Of a DNA stretch of 30,429 bases, positions 19,997 through 27,131 are shown one piece after another. Under the pieces are notes generated by a model. That model was not told where the DNA came from. It saw only the letters and a program-made list of their open reading frames with translations, and ran no database searches. This stretch comes from a virus, in IMG/VR virus record IMGVR_UViG_3300045988_119600. The stretch is one strand, 5' to 3'. The position numbers were made by a program, and so were the translations under genes. Within the stretch, counting starts at the first letter, position 1. Each line of letters starts with the position of its first letter.

Positions 19997-20551
19997 ATGG
20001 CAATTCCAAAAGCAATAGAACATATGCGTAGTGGAAGTGGTAGTTTAGAAATTATTCCAATTACTTCTACTGATGGATTAACTTACATAGGAACCGCAAA
20101 ATCTATTAAAGAATATAAAGACGGAATGATTATTGGCCTTATTCCAAATATGAATAATGTTGCGACAAATCCAATTACTAATATAACAATAAATATAAAT
20201 AATTTAGGAGCATTAAAATTAACTCAATATTATATTAAAAAAGAACATTCTAATAATGGATTAGGATGTTGGCATTAGAATACTGCTGTAGAAGCAAATT
20301 TTCTATATAAAGATGAAGCATTTATCGGATAGATACAATTAGGGTCATCCAGTGGTGATTATATTTTACCCATTAATCCAGGATTAGACTTAGCTTAGAT
20401 TACTAATGGTTCTATGGGATCTAATTTATCTGTCACTACTAATTCTTCTTATTTAAACAATAATATTTTAAGAAATATTAAAGTATCCACTTCTGCTCCC
20501 ACCGCTTCAGACGGAAATGTTGGAGATATTTGGATTTAGTATTTCACTTAA
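19997..20551 (+). CDS. Tail-fibre/baseplate-associated protein (184 codons) with four in-frame TAG codons. The track shows only 19997-20278
   Basis: RBS taaggagg. Frame is open from 19997 to TAA 20549-51 except for TAGs. The next gene's RBS and ATG follow immediately. Confidence 0.55.
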
Positions 20552-20567
20552 TAGAGGAGGAATTTAA

Positions 20568-21980
20568 ATGCCAAATACTTATAATCCTTCTGGAACTTCT
20601 ATAACAGATTATTCTTCTATTAAATTTATTCCAGGAGATATTATTAATAGTAGCTATTCAGGAGCGGTAAATCCAGTAAAACTTCCAGCGGGAAATTATC
20701 AATTAGAATGTTGGGGTGGCTATGGCGGAATTGGTTATTCTGGTTCTTTAACTTCATCAACAACAACTTCATGGATATATATAGGAACTCATAATGCGAC
20801 CAGTTATTTTACTGTTAATGATTCAAATTATTATTTTCGTCAAGACGGAAATGACTGGATAGCTACTAACGGAGGAATAGATTCAAGTACTGCTACAACT
20901 ACATTAACTTGTACTTCTGGGGGGACTTATAAATTTTCATATTATTATAAAACTGAAGCAAGCTATGATAAAGTCACTTTAACTGTTGGAGGAAATACAG
21001 TTTTAAATGCGGTTTCTGGATCAAGTTCTCTTACTACTACTGGCACTTATTCTTTATCATCAGGATCTACTATCGTAATGACTTATACTAAAGATAGCTC
21101 AAATTCCGTGGATAATGAAGAAGTTTATTTTTAGATTTAGAAATAGGAAAGTAATACTACTTATACTCCTGCGAGTTCAAAAAATAGTTATTGGGGTGGA
21201 ACAGGAGGATATTCTATAGGAATTCTTTCTTTACCAGTTCCTACCACTATTTATTTATACACCGGGGGGCATGGTAGTTATTCAAGTGATAGTGAAAAAG
21301 GTAAGATAGTTAATGGTGGATTTAATGGAGGAGGTAGCTCTAGGATTAGATGGTATACTTCTGCTTACACATCAGGTGGAGGAGGCGGAGGAGCTTCCGA
21401 TATCCGCGTAGGTCAAGACTCTCTTTATGCCCGTGTAATTGTTGCCGGTGGTGGTGGTGGTGGCGCGGGAGAAAGTAATTCTTCTATTAAATAGGGTGGC
21501 GGATTGACGGGTAACTCTGCGGTTGAAGAATATAAGGCTACATAGACTAAAGCAGGAACAAATGGATCTTTTGGTCAAGGTGCTGATGCTAGTGGATCTA
21601 CCAATTATAATTATGGTCCCGGTGGTGGTGGTGGTGGCTGGTATGGCGGTGGTGCTTCTACTAATGTTAGTGATAGCTCTGCTGATTATAGAACTTATAA
21701 TGGGGGAGGCTCTGGCTACGTATATACTTCATCAACTGCTTCTAATTATCCTTCTGGCTGTTTGTTAAACAATAATTATTATTTAACAAATGCCTCTACT
21801 ACGATAGGCTATAGTAAAACTAATCCTGGAGGGCAAAATGGATATATTCGTATTACAGTATTATCTCCTTTAAATATAAAAATCAATTCTAATACTTATG
21901 CTCCTACTAAAGCTATATATATAAAAACAGATAGTACAACTTGGAAAGGAGGAGACGTTACATGGCAACTTACGACTTAA
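20568..21980 (+). CDS. Glycine-rich repeat tail-fibre/receptor-binding-like protein (470 codons) with five in-frame TAG codons
   Basis: The track's 20568-21134 and 21762-21980 are one frame. The Gly-rich motifs (GGGGGASDIRVG..SLYARVIVAGGGGG, GGGSGYVYTSSTASNYPSGCLLNNNYYLT) are shared with the next gene. Confidence 0.6.
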
Positions 21981-23278
21981 CTTCTTCAATTCCTTCTTCT
22001 TCTTCTTTAAAAACAGGAGATATATTAAATTGTCCTTATAGTGGAACTTATAAAAATATTGCCCTTCCAAAAGGTACTTATAAATTAGAATGTTGGGGGG
22101 CTTAGGGAGGAAATGGTGCTAATAGTAACTCTAGTTTTGACGCTTCTTCGGGAGCTATAGGAGGAAAAGGTGGATATTCAACGGGAATTTTAACTCTTTC
22201 TTCCTCTCAAACGGTATATTTATATACTGGTGGAAAAGGAGGTTGTATTTCTTCTTCTGCTAATGATTATACAGGAGGATTTAATGGAGGCGGTACTGGA
22301 GGAGTCTCCGGATCTATGTCTCGAAGCGGTGGTGGTGGAGGAGCTTCTGATATTCGTATTGGATCAAACTCTCTCTACGCTCGTGTAATTGTCGCCGGCG
22401 GAGGCGGAGCTACCTCTTGGGGATCTAATACAGAAAGCGGAGATGCCGGTGGGGGCACCAGTAGTGTAGCAGGGTCTAATAGTCCAGGTCTAAGTACACA
22501 AACTTCAGGAAATAGCTTTGGAGTAGGAGGAAATGGATATTCATCCAGTTCTTCTTATAATATAAATGGAGCTGGAGGAGGCGGCTGGTATGGTGGAATT
22601 GTTTCACTCTCTAATATGCAGGGTGGAACAAAATATCATGGTGGCGGAGGTTCTGGTTATGTATATACCTCATCCACTGCTTCTAATTATCCTTCTGGTT
22701 GTTTGTTAAATAGTAACTATTATTTAACTTCTGCATCAACTATCGCAGGTAATTCTTCATTTATTTCTCCAACAGGGTCATCTGAAACAGGTCATGGTGG
22801 AAATGGCTATATAAGAATTACTATTTAGTCTATAGCAAATTGGGCTTATTCTACTGTGTCAATATCTGCTCCCACTTATAACAAATAGAACACCTCTTCT
22901 TGGACTTTATCTCCAAGCACTTGTCGATATTTTTCTTTTACTCCTACTATTTCAGGGGACTTTATTGTTTATTCTAATTCTTCAATAGACACTTATGGTT
23001 ATTTAACATCAAGTATTACTTCTCTTAATGATAGTGGATAGCCTTCTTCTAATATTTTAGCTAGCGATGATGATTATGCAAAAAAATATGGCGGTACTGG
23101 AGCTAATTTTGGTATTTGTTATAAAGTTACGGCTGGAACTACTTATTATATATATGTTAAGCCTTATCGTGATAGTACAGCAAATAGTTCAGTATATTTA
23201 ACTTATTATATGGCTCATCCTGACAGTAGAGTATATGTAAAAACAGATAGTACAACATGGAAATTGATAACCAATTAA
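21962..23278 (+). CDS. Paralogous glycine-rich tail-fibre-like protein (438 codons) with at least four in-frame TAG codons
   Basis: RBS aaggagga 8 nt before ATG 21962. Contains track ORF 22316-22828. 'CWGA[TAG]GGNG' aligns to 'CWGGYGGIG' of the paralog. Continues through TAGs to TAA 23276-78. Confidence 0.6.
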
Positions 23279-23280
23279 AA

Positions 23281-23340
23281 ATTTTTTTGACATTTTTAAA
23301 AAAATAATATATAATATATTTATAAAATAAAGAAAGACCT
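23281..23340 (+). promoter_or_regulatory. Conserved promoter and leader (TTGACA-17-TATAAT-atttataaaataaagaaaga) driving the tRNA-like genes
   Basis: Motif copy with no ORF downstream; the tRNA-like genes follow. Confidence 0.55.
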
Positions 23341-23357
23341 TTACAGCAAAAATAACT

Positions 23358-23428
23358 TCCAGAATAGACTAAAGGTTAGGTCATAATCCTTCAAGATTAA
23401 GTTAATGGTTCAAATCCATTTTTCGGAC
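23358..23428 (+). tRNA. tRNA-like gene with a non-canonical anticodon arm (5-bp stem taatc/gatta with a 6-nt loop cUUCAa). The triplet UCA follows U in the position of an opal-reading anticodon
   Basis: Acceptor tccagaa/tttcgga (one mismatch), D-arm gact-aaaggtta-ggtc, canonical T-arm aatgg-ttcaaat-ccatt. No CCA encoded. Confidence 0.3.
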
Positions 23429-23449
23429 AAAGTTAAGGTCTTGTTTTAT

Positions 23450-25878: not shown

Positions 25879-25881
25879 TAT

Positions 25882-25957
25882 GGCCCTGGGGGCAGTCAGC
25901 AGAGCCGCCAGCCTGTCACGCTGGAGATAGCGGGGTCGGCACCCGTCGGGGTCGCCA
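25882..25957 (+). tRNA. GC-rich tRNA-Asp (GUC) with a non-canonical T-loop (gtcggca). Apparent duplicate of the adjacent tRNA-Glu(UUC) with an anticodon change
   Basis: Acceptor ggccctg/cggggtc, anticodon stem ccagc/gctgg with loop cuGUCac (compare ccagc-ctttcac-gttgg next door). CCA encoded. Confidence 0.45.
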
Positions 25958-26117
25958 TATGTTGGCATTATTCTTATGTCTATGTAAGTGCGCAGGTGGT
26001 CGCACAAAAGCCTCTACAAAAGTTGGCCATTTGATGAGGTCTATTAAGAATTTTGGGACGATAGGTTAGAAAGTCCAATAGATATAATAGTCATGAATAT
26101 TATATCTATCCTATTTT

Positions 26118-26193
26118 CGGTCAATAGCTTAACTGGTAGAGCATTGTTCTCATAAGACAAGGGATATTAGTTCGATTCTAATTTGACCGACCA
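26118..26193 (+). tRNA. tRNA-Met (CAU), CCA encoded
   Basis: Perfect acceptor cggtcaa/ttgaccg, anticodon stem ttgtt/gacaa with loop cuCAUaa, T-arm attag-ttcgatt-ctaat. Confidence 0.8.
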
Positions 26194-26194
26194 T

Positions 26195-26268
26195 TGCGGT
26201 GGTGGAGCAAAGGTAGCTCGTTGGCCTCATAAGCCAAAAACGGCGTTCGAATCGCCCGACCGCAACCA
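26195..26268 (+). tRNA. Second CAU-anticodon tRNA (Met or Ile-lysidine type). The acceptor has a 1-nt irregularity
   Basis: D-arm gagc-aaaggta-gctc, anticodon stem ttggc/gccaa with loop cuCAUaa, T-loop ttcgaat, CCA present. Confidence 0.55.
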
Positions 26269-26351
26269 TATCATCACCTAAATACTTTCGAGGTCGAAAA
26301 ATTATAATTATCTTAAATAAAATTTTAATTATAGTGTAAGGAGATGGTAAT

Positions 26352-27131
26352 ATGATAGGAATTTATAAAATTACTAATAAAATAAATAATCATTGTTATA
26401 TTGGATAGTCAAGAAATATAGCAGAACGTTGGGAAAATCATATATATAGCTCCCAAGATGAAAAGAGTAAAAGCTATAATTATCCCTTATATCAAAGTTT
26501 CAGAAAATATGGTGTTTCTAATTTTATATTTGAAGTGTTAGAAGAATGTGAAATTGATAATCTAAATAGTAGAGAAACTTATTGGATTGATTATTATAAA
26601 CCAGAGTATAATTAGACAATAGGTGGAGATTATCGCGTAATTTATCAAAAATTAAATTATTAGGAAGTCCAAGATATTCAAAATATTTTAATTAATGATA
26701 AGTTAGGTGTAGTTAATCATTCGGAATTAGCTAAAAAATATAAAGTTAGTAAAGATACTATTAGAGATATAAATGTTGGAAGAACTTGGTTTAATGAAAA
26801 ATTAAATTATCCTTTACATTATTCTCGTTTTGATAAAAATAAACCAGAAGAAGAGAAAAAACTTTTAAAAAAAGTTTGTCCTATATGTGGTGGAGAGTGG
26901 AGCGGAAAAGGTCAAAAATGTTAGAAATGTTCTGCTAAAGAACATCGAAAAATTAAAAGACCTTCTCGTGATAAATTAAAAAAATTGATTCGTAATAAAA
27001 GTTTTACTTCTATCGCGAATATATATCATGTAAGTGATAATTCCATTAGAAAATGGTGTATTTCTTATAATTTACCTAATACAAAAAAAATTATAAATTT
27101 ATACACTGATGATGAATGGAAAAACATATAA
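26352..27131 (+). mobile_element. GIY-YIG homing endonuclease gene (259 codons) with four in-frame TAG codons, inserted in the tRNA cluster
   Basis: MIGIYKITNKINNHCYIG[TAG]SRNIAERWENH matches the GIY-(10)-YIG…R…E signature, with the TAG falling where YIGQS/YIGSS is expected. HTH-like NUMOD segments follow, and a CPICGG…KC[TAG]KC zinc finger has its TAG inside the CxxC. RBS gtaaggaga. Confidence 0.8.

Follow-up and report, generated by a model that had tools for sequence, protein, structure and literature searches.

The question raised by this locus is whether the amber triplet TAG, a stop codon in the standard genetic code, is translated in a phage genome and, if so, as which amino acid. The window (the whole stretch of viral DNA that was analysed, 30,429 nt, IMG/VR record IMGVR_UViG_3300045988_119600) contains, between positions 19997 and 27131, four long genes that are interrupted by TAG. 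A preliminary description of the window took TAG to be a sense codon, most probably for glutamine. The analysis reported here covers the window and its flanking loci, about 40 kb of a 195-kb genome, and that view is borne out by coding density, by protein domains, by conserved glutamine columns, by exchanges between TAG and CAA, and by a tRNA with a CUA anticodon. Many genes of this phage have TAG as a sense codon, far beyond what chance would allow. On the sequence comparisons given below, it is very probable that this gut phage of about 195 kb decodes UAG as glutamine, which corresponds to genetic code 15. The novelty of such recoding was overrated in the preliminary description, as genetic code 15 is already documented in gut phages.

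In-frame amber codons

Frames were delimited by TAA and TGA alone, and the stops between these limits were then counted in each frame; the gene coordinates of the preliminary description proved correct. The four genes of 19997-27131 contain 17 TAG codons and no TAA or TGA over 1351 codons; over the 40 kb read, 55 in-frame TAGs are distributed among 19 genes. In the off-frames of the genes, 8.3% of codons are TAA or TGA, and 15% of stops are TAG. From the off-frame counts, the probability that a 470-codon frame is free of TAA and TGA is about 1e-18, and from the off-frame stop shares, the probability that 17 interrupting stops are all TAG is about 1e-14. The comparison of coding densities that had been suggested points the same way: a greedy gene call, tRNAs included, reaches 0.72 with the standard code and 0.82 when TAG is made sense, against 0.73 when TGA is. 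The TAG-sense call comprises 53 genes, 44 ending in TAA, nine in TGA and none in TAG. Coverage by open reading frames (ORFs) in loci L001-L009 is about twofold higher with TAG as sense, and there is no such gain for TGA. The claim that TAA and TGA remain true stops also holds: they end all genes, and they take part in ATGA overlaps (2421/2424 and 9243/9246) and TAATG overlaps (7829 and 10253). Reassignment of TGA or TAA, a candidate prompted by an odd tRNA at 23358-23428, was rejected, since the TGA-sense density shows no gain and both codons end all genes.

These amber codons are stable among relatives. Related strains keep 121 of 129 TAG codons, and identical TAGs are seen in independent assemblies from different samples. 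TAG-rich genes also occur outside the window, where they encode HNH, endolysin-like NAGPA/SPOR, InlB-repeat and Mtd_N proteins. The gene caller of the source collection already had products of 184, 470, 438 and 259 amino acids here and, because these products span TAGs, it must have read TAG as sense. One homologue of the winged-helix protein is held in a record flagged as not translating to the recorded protein under the standard table.

Several of the genes are recognizable as intact proteins only when TAG is read through (Table 1). The paralogous fibre genes had been described as continuous frames of 470 and 438 codons, and neither contains an internal TAA or TGA; the Pfam family ALK_LTK_GRD is matched across both, with E values of 3e-34 for the 470-codon protein and 2e-45 for its paralog. 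The 470-codon glycine-rich protein is a putative tail fibre or host-recognition protein. Translation of the GIY-YIG gene likewise agrees with the TAG positions first noted in the YIG motif and in a CxxC knuckle, giving YIG-q-S and C-q-K-C, in which q is the TAG codon. Its 259-residue product matches Pfam GIY-YIG, and the gene is inserted between tRNA-Met and tRNA-Asp. It is best described, from sequence features, as a mobile free-standing homing endonuclease gene that itself uses TAG codons. The segment 26201-27181, which includes this gene, is absent from L007, where 82 nt are found instead, and a copy with 68% identity is located elsewhere in L009.

The preliminary description also named five genes, called early, that continue in frame past a TAG, and three of these are supported. 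The winged-helix protein matches phrog_3396 over residues 3-189, a span that includes TAGs. There are 512 full-length homologues of this protein, many on contigs of 185-200 kb, so its lineage must be common. In the product of 6603-7208, the Pfam families tRNA_anti-like (residues 32-187) and tRNA_anti-codon (residues 125-185) both span residue 157, the TAG position, and a strong terminator-like hairpin (7211-7244) begins two bases past the TAA. The gene at 16297-17097 has a perfect TTGACA-17-TATAAT promoter upstream (16244-16272) and an AGGAG Shine-Dalgarno sequence 8 nt ahead of the TTG at 16297; TAG 16399 and the entire frame are kept in L009. For the other two, 8678-8929 and 108-359, read-through is plausible, and no homologue was recovered in the loci at hand; the extension of 8678-8929 after its TAG is short enough for chance. 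No orthologues of 6603, 8678 or 108-359 were found in the more distant relatives L089-L091, and a Pfam scan of ten further small window proteins gave no match.

Two other observations concern the left end of the window. The same more distant relatives, with 73% identity in the winged-helix protein, encode a Thg1-like protein near the winged-helix gene (L089 5820-6632, L090 6773-7582 and L091 66-1061). Thg1-like proteins form a family of tRNA 3'-5' nucleotidyl addition and repair enzymes. The window proteins that were scanned against Pfam include no counterpart. At the extreme left, on the minus strand, a hairpin of GGGCATAAATGCCC followed by TCGTTTATA occurs in two identical copies 40 nt apart (10-23 and 50-63).

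Table 1. Features of the window and of the adjoining contig L002. Stops and remarks are given as found; GC3 is the G+C content of third codon positions.
Feature	Position	Strand	In-frame TAG	Remarks
83-codon frame	108..359	-	279	Single TAG; read-through plausible
Winged-helix / ScpB-like gene, 207 codons	567..1190	-	1164, 1098, 816, 756, 732, 591	Six TAGs
TAG-poor block, about 30 genes	1616..19877	+	Single TAGs in three genes	GC3 0.23-0.55; readable in the standard code
Zinc-ribbon + OB-fold gene, 201 codons	6603..7208	+	7071	TAA at 7206-7208
83-codon gene	8678..8929	+	8885	14-codon extension; next start, 8932, is 2 nt on
266-codon gene, TTG start	16297..17097	+	16399	TAG is codon 35
184-codon gene, no function assigned	19997..20551	+	20276, 20330, 20396, 20537	Stop TAA; GC3 0.15
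Glycine-rich-domain protein, 470 codons	20568..21980	+	21132, 21138, 21144, 21492, 21543	
Paralog of the 470-codon fibre gene, 438 codons	21962..23278	+	22103, 22826, 22886, 23039	
Phage tRNA array	23358..30079	+		16 ARAGORN calls, 14 confirmed by Rfam; runs on past window end
Minimal HDV-like (theta-type) ribozyme candidate	23523..23577	+		3' of tRNA-Trp(CCA); descriptor scan
GIY-YIG gene, 259 codons	26352..27131	+	26406 (YIG-q-S), 26613, 26661, 26922 (C-q-K-C)	
51-codon gene	30099..30254	+	30117, 30141, 30198	51-aa product in source collection
tRNA(CUA)	L002 15957-16045 (window-equivalent 34636-34724)			ARAGORN; Rfam tRNA 57.8 bits
HDV-like candidate after the suppressor	L002 16047-16101			Rfam RF02682, 26 bits, E 0.014, below the gathering score of 44

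The amino acid at UAG and the suppressor tRNA

The evidence for glutamine comes mainly from columns of protein alignments. A scan of IMG/VR with the fibre protein gave 42 loci, in which L007-L009, L047 and L048 are recoded and L010-L046 use the standard code; the latter are taken as not recoded because even the standard code gives them a coding density of about 0.9. At the column of TAG 22103 (CWGA-q-GG), glutamine is present in 162 of the 166 matches from these standard-code phage loci, and at the column of TAG 21543 it is the commonest residue in standard-code homologues. In an alignment of 120 GIY-YIG homologues, the two columns in which glutamine is most conserved (94% and 92%) are those of TAG 26406 and TAG 26613. 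Database proteins of recoded phages show Q by construction, and the DNA of TAG-free homologues (L049-L053) was therefore examined; these use CAA at both columns. An InlB B-repeat protein just outside the window has one TAG on the conserved glutamine of the repeat (S-Q-TV, 144/174). Four family-conserved glutamine columns thus bear TAG: CWGA-Q-GG, YIG-Q-S, EYN-Q-T and the InlB B-repeat S-Q-TV. The searches originally proposed for the GIY-YIG, fibre and winged-helix products, run with TAG read through, align several TAG sites with glutamine. One argument of the preliminary description stands in part: LECWGA-q-GGNG of the 438-codon protein does align with LECWGGYGGIG of its paralog, but the paralog residue would suggest tyrosine, whereas the wider family has glutamine.

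Substitutions agree with the columns. Among close relatives there are 15 exchanges of TAG, in either direction, with CAA (six), serine codons (four), tyrosine codons (two) and codons for histidine, aspartate and lysine. TAG 20330 in the 184-codon gene is CAA in relatives and TAG 20276 is TCA or AGC; TAG 21138 and TAG 21492 are replaced by CAA in relatives, and TAG 22103 reads CAA in L008. At the six TAG sites of the winged-helix gene, a 73%-identical orthologue has CAA twice, TAG once, AAT twice and AAG, and its two CAA codons bring the number of TAG/CAA swaps to eight. Mean BLOSUM62 scores summed over 42 TAG sites are 43.4 for Q, 15.8 for E, 6.3 for S, 2.4 for N, -39.8 for Y, -76.9 for L and -94.7 for W. 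Depletion of CAG (10 CAG against 64 CAA in TAG genes) was dropped as evidence for glutamine, because G-ending codons fall generally in these genes (GAG, AAG and TTG equally; GC3 0.19 versus 0.35).

A tRNA whose anticodon matches UAG is encoded on the same contig. The window itself had been described as lacking a tRNA(CUA), which ARAGORN confirms over its whole length, and the suppressor that was to be sought elsewhere is present 4.2 kb past the window end. This tRNA has a length of 89-90 nt, a U1·U72 mismatch, G73, a 5-bp anticodon stem, a class-I-type D arm (stem of 4 bp, loop of 8 nt) and a variable region of 21 nt, and there are 3-4 unpaired nucleotides after the variable hairpin. It is conserved in L007, L060 and L079, and a pattern scan of IMG/VR gave tRNAs of this kind, 86-98 nt in length, in 35 contigs of 7-415 kb (loci L054-L088). 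Several phages pair a normal-length tRNA(CUA) with an adjoining long one, and L073 carries such a pair. An alignment of 14 members displays covariation in the acceptor, D and T stems and a variable-arm hairpin with the conserved loop YUGAAG; position 1 is A or U, the 1:72 pair is weak or mismatched, and G73 is present in 13 of 14. Without the variable arm, the body has a mean score of 0.43 against phage tRNA-Trp, at most 0.31 against other isotypes and 0.19 against tRNA-Gln, in a set picked by anticodon-arm sequence, which favours tRNA-Trp.

Three other origins for this tRNA were considered and rejected. Derivation from the neighbouring 90-nt tRNA-Tyr(GUA) fails as the anticodon arm alone is alike; tyrosine scores low without the variable arm, and its site tally is -40. 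Derivation from a class II tRNA (Ser, Leu or Tyr) is at odds with the class I-like D arm and the Trp-like body, and TAG falls on no conserved serine, leucine or tyrosine column. Pyrrolysine is the label ('Pyl') that ARAGORN assigns. The hallmarks of tRNA-Pyl are a 3-nt variable loop, a 6-bp anticodon stem, a small D loop and accompanying pylS and pylBCD genes. In the tRNA here, the variable region measures 21 nt, the anticodon stem 5 bp and the D loop 8 nt, and the TAG columns are occupied by glutamine rather than by lysine-like residues. No Pyl-related Pfam family was found among the called genes of the 21-kb locus.

It may still be that TAG is sense and that tryptophan, serine, leucine, tyrosine or an ambiguous mixture is inserted. 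A tRNA of 89-90 nt with a 21-nt variable region resembles class II tRNAs, its body without the variable arm is nearest to phage tRNA-Trp, and G73 is common to bacterial Ser, Trp and Gln tRNAs. Some related phages have a short tRNA(CUA) gene and a different, long one, and the proteins contribute the paralog tyrosine at the CWG-x-GG site and the four replacements of TAG by serine codons among close relatives. However, all four strongly conserved TAG columns are glutamine and none is serine, tyrosine, leucine or tryptophan, and the BLOSUM tally stands at 43 for glutamine against 6 for serine, -40 for tyrosine, -77 for leucine and -95 for tryptophan. Swaps with serine at variable sites are expected, because the fibre proteins are very serine-rich. 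The class I D arm and the 3-4 unpaired nucleotides past the variable hairpin appear unlike those of Ser, Leu and Tyr tRNAs. A Trp-like body is also compatible with glutamine: Escherichia coli su+7 (supU), known from genetics of the 1970s, is a tRNA-Trp with a CUA anticodon that is charged with glutamine. Insertion of an amino acid other than glutamine is therefore judged improbable.

Less probable again, and very unlikely on the evidence here, is low-level programmed read-through, in which TAG would be mainly a stop and the sequences behind it regulated C-terminal extensions. Three genes in the TAG-poor block do have one TAG each with a domain or an extension behind it, the classical layout for read-through. 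However, TAG also occurs in the catalytic motif YIG-Q-S near an N-terminus, and it terminates no gene. With 4-8 TAGs per gene, and three within five codons at 21132-21144, there would be essentially no full-length product without efficient suppression. Least credible is the suggestion that the frames are continuous by accident, with TAG marking a pseudogene, an error of assembly or sequencing, or the true end of a shorter gene: a standard-code ORF finder does yield fragments (19997-20278, 20568-21134 and 22316-22828), and the short post-TAG extensions in 8678-8929 and 108-359 could be chance, but the interruptions are always TAG and never TAA or TGA (probability about 1e-14 to 1e-18), assemblies made independently from different samples show the same TAGs, and Pfam domains extend across TAGs on a contig with a matching suppressor tRNA.

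Some points weigh against glutamine decoding in the form proposed here. The assignment of the inserted amino acid draws solely on comparative evidence, some TAG sites at variable columns align with Ser, Tyr, Asn, Lys or Gly, and a variable region of 21 nt is atypical for the suppressor. The distribution of TAG is uneven as well: the TAG-densest gene is the winged-helix gene at the left end, the TAG-poor block includes three one-TAG genes, and the large genes adjoining the fibre genes (12520-19559) are TAG-free. As the winged-helix gene has six TAGs and the large genes by the fibres none, a split between early and late genes is not clean.

Candidate ribozymes, the tRNA array and a possible mechanism

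Directly behind the suppressor gene lies an element resembling the hepatitis delta virus (HDV) ribozyme. By eye, it has P1 GGUGCU/AGCACU with a G·U at the cleavage site, P2 AAACAAA/UUUGUUU, P3 ACC/GGU with the loop UCCUCGC, a P1.1 of GG and a CUAA junction. When the 3' flanks of all tRNAs were scanned with a descriptor, this architecture also turned up after tRNA-Trp in this window and after tRNA-Ala in L007 and L009. The tRNA-Trp copy folds with P1 GGGAAC/GTTCCT, P2 CCACAAT/ATTGTGG, P3 ACC/GGT, L3 TTCACGC and a CTAA junction. P1 and P2 covary fully among the three sequence variants, and P3 (ACC/GGT) and the CTAA junction are constant; these pairings come from the descriptor scan, as a MAFFT alignment of the three copies is out of structural register. 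Among the copies, the suppressor-linked one alone reaches even a weak Rfam score.

Both copies in this strain start one nucleotide (C) past the discriminator base of the tRNA. The ribozyme-linked tRNAs, Trp and Sup, end in ...TGC without an encoded CCA, whereas CCA is encoded in most others of the array. The copy behind tRNA-Trp is strain-specific: in L007-L009, tRNA-Trp ends in CCA and has no ribozyme. Since these strains lack the Trp copy and L007 and L009 have the tRNA-Ala copy, the element appears to be gained or lost between strains. Both elements are candidate theta-type ribozymes that match the published association with tRNAs, and self-cleavage is predicted for them. A further element, a twister-P1-like ribozyme candidate at 28178-28228 on the plus strand (RF03160, 39 bits, E 1.5e-7, gathering score 67), keeps UAA...GGUUCCAAGUCC...GAGG and lies directly upstream of the ORF 28233-28469.

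The array also includes unusual tRNA-like sequences. At 23358-23428, on the plus strand and 21 nt upstream of tRNA-Trp, is a tRNA-like element with an Rfam tRNA score of 44 bits and a 6-nt anticodon loop. The loop is CUUCAA (UCA) here and A/CUUUAA (UUA) in three relatives; read as anticodons, both would match stop codons. The close relative L060, a 196-kb IMG/VR contig, has an extra 80-nt tRNA-like gene with the anticodon UCA (7726-7805, minus strand) beyond its tRNA-Tyr; beyond the tRNA-Tyr of L002, ARAGORN found no tRNA matching it. The plus-strand sequence at 24579-24653, called by ARAGORN as tRNA-Thr(AGT) and not recognised by Rfam, has neither U33 nor a canonical T loop, and its anticodon is AAT in L008; it is probably a degenerate or non-canonical tRNA.

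A possible course of events can be put together from these elements. If the host uses the standard code, as is assumed, the TAG-poor genes would be translatable at once after infection. The tRNA array would be transcribed after infection, and the ribozyme would self-cleave and thereby free the 3' end of the suppressor; this end, which has no encoded CCA, would require repair and CCA-tailing. A host enzyme, most likely glutaminyl-tRNA synthetase (GlnRS) or else glutamyl-tRNA synthetase (GluRS) plus GatCAB, would charge the tRNA(CUA) with glutamine. GlnRS is proposed because C34-U35, G73 and an unpaired 1:72 are present, as in su+7; C34-U35, G73 and a weak 1:72 pair are features that favour GlnRS. 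Once charged, the tRNA would outcompete release factor 1, and the TAG-rich genes would be made only when enough charged suppressor had accumulated. Late translatability of TAG-rich genes has been proposed for other recoded phages.

A doubtful extension of this model is that the suppressor is not a mutated tRNA-Gln at all and belongs instead to a distinct, widespread phage family, defined by a Trp-like body, the CUA anticodon, a mismatched 1:72, G73, the YUGAAG hairpin and release by a theta ribozyme. In such a family, the hairpin could be an identity element, an anti-determinant or a handle for a phage factor, and it may steer charging with glutamine or shield the tRNA from host defences; the pairs of short and long tRNAs might then mean that UAG is decoded in two ways or in two phases.

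Source phage and relation to known systems

Over 18680-30429, the window is identical (100%) to the contig ERZ27229771 k119_258827 (L002), which is 195,006 bp long, and the AAA ATPase of the window is found on gut-metagenome contigs of 193-195 kb. The GenBank phage collection gave no match to the window DNA, nor to the fibre protein by tblastn, and a 534-residue protein has only a weak Enterococcus phage match. Two codon regimes are evident. TAG-rich genes have GC3 values of 0.12-0.19, apart from one 51-codon gene (0.31), and genes with at least two TAGs have a lower GC3 than the rest (Mann-Whitney p = 9e-6). The TAG-poor block uses G-ending codons frequently, and the long genes of 12520-19877 and 28680-29819 are without in-frame TAG. 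The switch between regimes is sharp, falling between 19877 and 19997 at a terminator (19881-19910).

On its plus strand, the TAG-poor block has three promoters that match TTGACA-17-TATAAT perfectly (12/12; 11794-11822, 16244-16272 and 17087-17115), two of them with an extended -10 TG. These promoters suggest transcription by a host RNA polymerase of sigma-70 type and a host outside the Bacteroidota. Together with the InlB-repeat and SPOR domains, they give a hint of a Bacillota host.

Recoding of gut phages was reportedly predicted by Ivanova et al. in 2014. Code-15 gut phages were surveyed in 2021-22 and include crAss-like and Lak phages and the Sapphire, Agate, Garnet, Amethyst and Topaz clades (bioRxiv 10.1101/2021.08.26.457843), and TAG-to-Gln recoding in gut phages was validated by proteomics in 2022 (PMC9523058). 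Several features are shared with these phages: in-frame TAG at glutamine positions, a phage tRNA(CUA), retention of TAA and TGA as stops, a large gut genome with a tRNA array and, with exceptions, TAG-heavy genes of structural, fibre and lysis type beside a TAG-poor block. A phage tRNA(CUA) is found in only about 40% of published code-15 cases, and is thus supportive rather than obligatory. The phage described here differs in that TAG also occurs outside the late genes, in the winged-helix gene with its six TAGs. In practical terms, the region needs translation table 15; otherwise, the fibre, homing endonuclease, winged-helix and lysis-type genes are fragmented.

A counterpart of the suppressor is in phAss-1 (OQ749652; proposed Phassvirus group), a 136-kb TAG-recoded gut phage with several tRNA-SUP-CTA genes and no dedicated synthetase (PMC10607447). 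Its description treats the tRNA-SUP-CTA genes as glutamine suppressors and, in the passages searched, does not discuss their architecture. One phAss-1 tRNA, annotated 'tRNA-TERM', shares 86% identity with the suppressor here over the D, anticodon and variable arms; in contrast, there is no other detectable nucleotide similarity between phAss-1 and the window, and the fibre protein has no tblastn match there.

Theta ribozymes, reported in 2024, are minimal HDV-like ribozymes at the 3' ends of phage tRNAs in recoded gut phages, and about 20% of the tRNAs that they accompany are suppressor tRNAs (PMC10879173). The hallmarks of such a unit are a nested fold of P1, P1.1, P2, P3, a short P4 and a C in J4/2, with cleavage no more than 5 nt from the 3' end of a tRNA that has no encoded CCA. 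The elements here share with them an HDV-like fold that starts at most 1 nt from the 3' end of the tRNA, the tRNAs without encoded CCA and the code-15 phage context. They differ in that the copy within the window follows tRNA-Trp and is strain-specific.

The suppressor itself can be set beside su+7, with which it would share a Trp-like body, G73, the CUA anticodon and glutamine, the amino acid that alignments indicate for the phage. The phage tRNA differs in adding a variable-region hairpin (YUGAAG) and a mismatched 1:72, and its charging by GlnRS would be by analogy. This Trp-like architecture with a long variable arm is the one aspect of the system that may be undescribed, and a Trp-like suppressor with an extra hairpin would be relevant to the way in which host synthetases are taken over when a code changes. 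In other respects, the phage displays most of the code-15 features that were tested and those of theta-ribozyme-linked tRNAs, and, as judged by these comparisons, it is not new in kind. With it, the code-15 phages gain a further large gut-phage lineage, and the published kit is brought together on a single contig: genes of late type that are rich in TAG, a block that is poor in it, a tRNA array, and a suppressor tRNA with a candidate theta ribozyme behind it.

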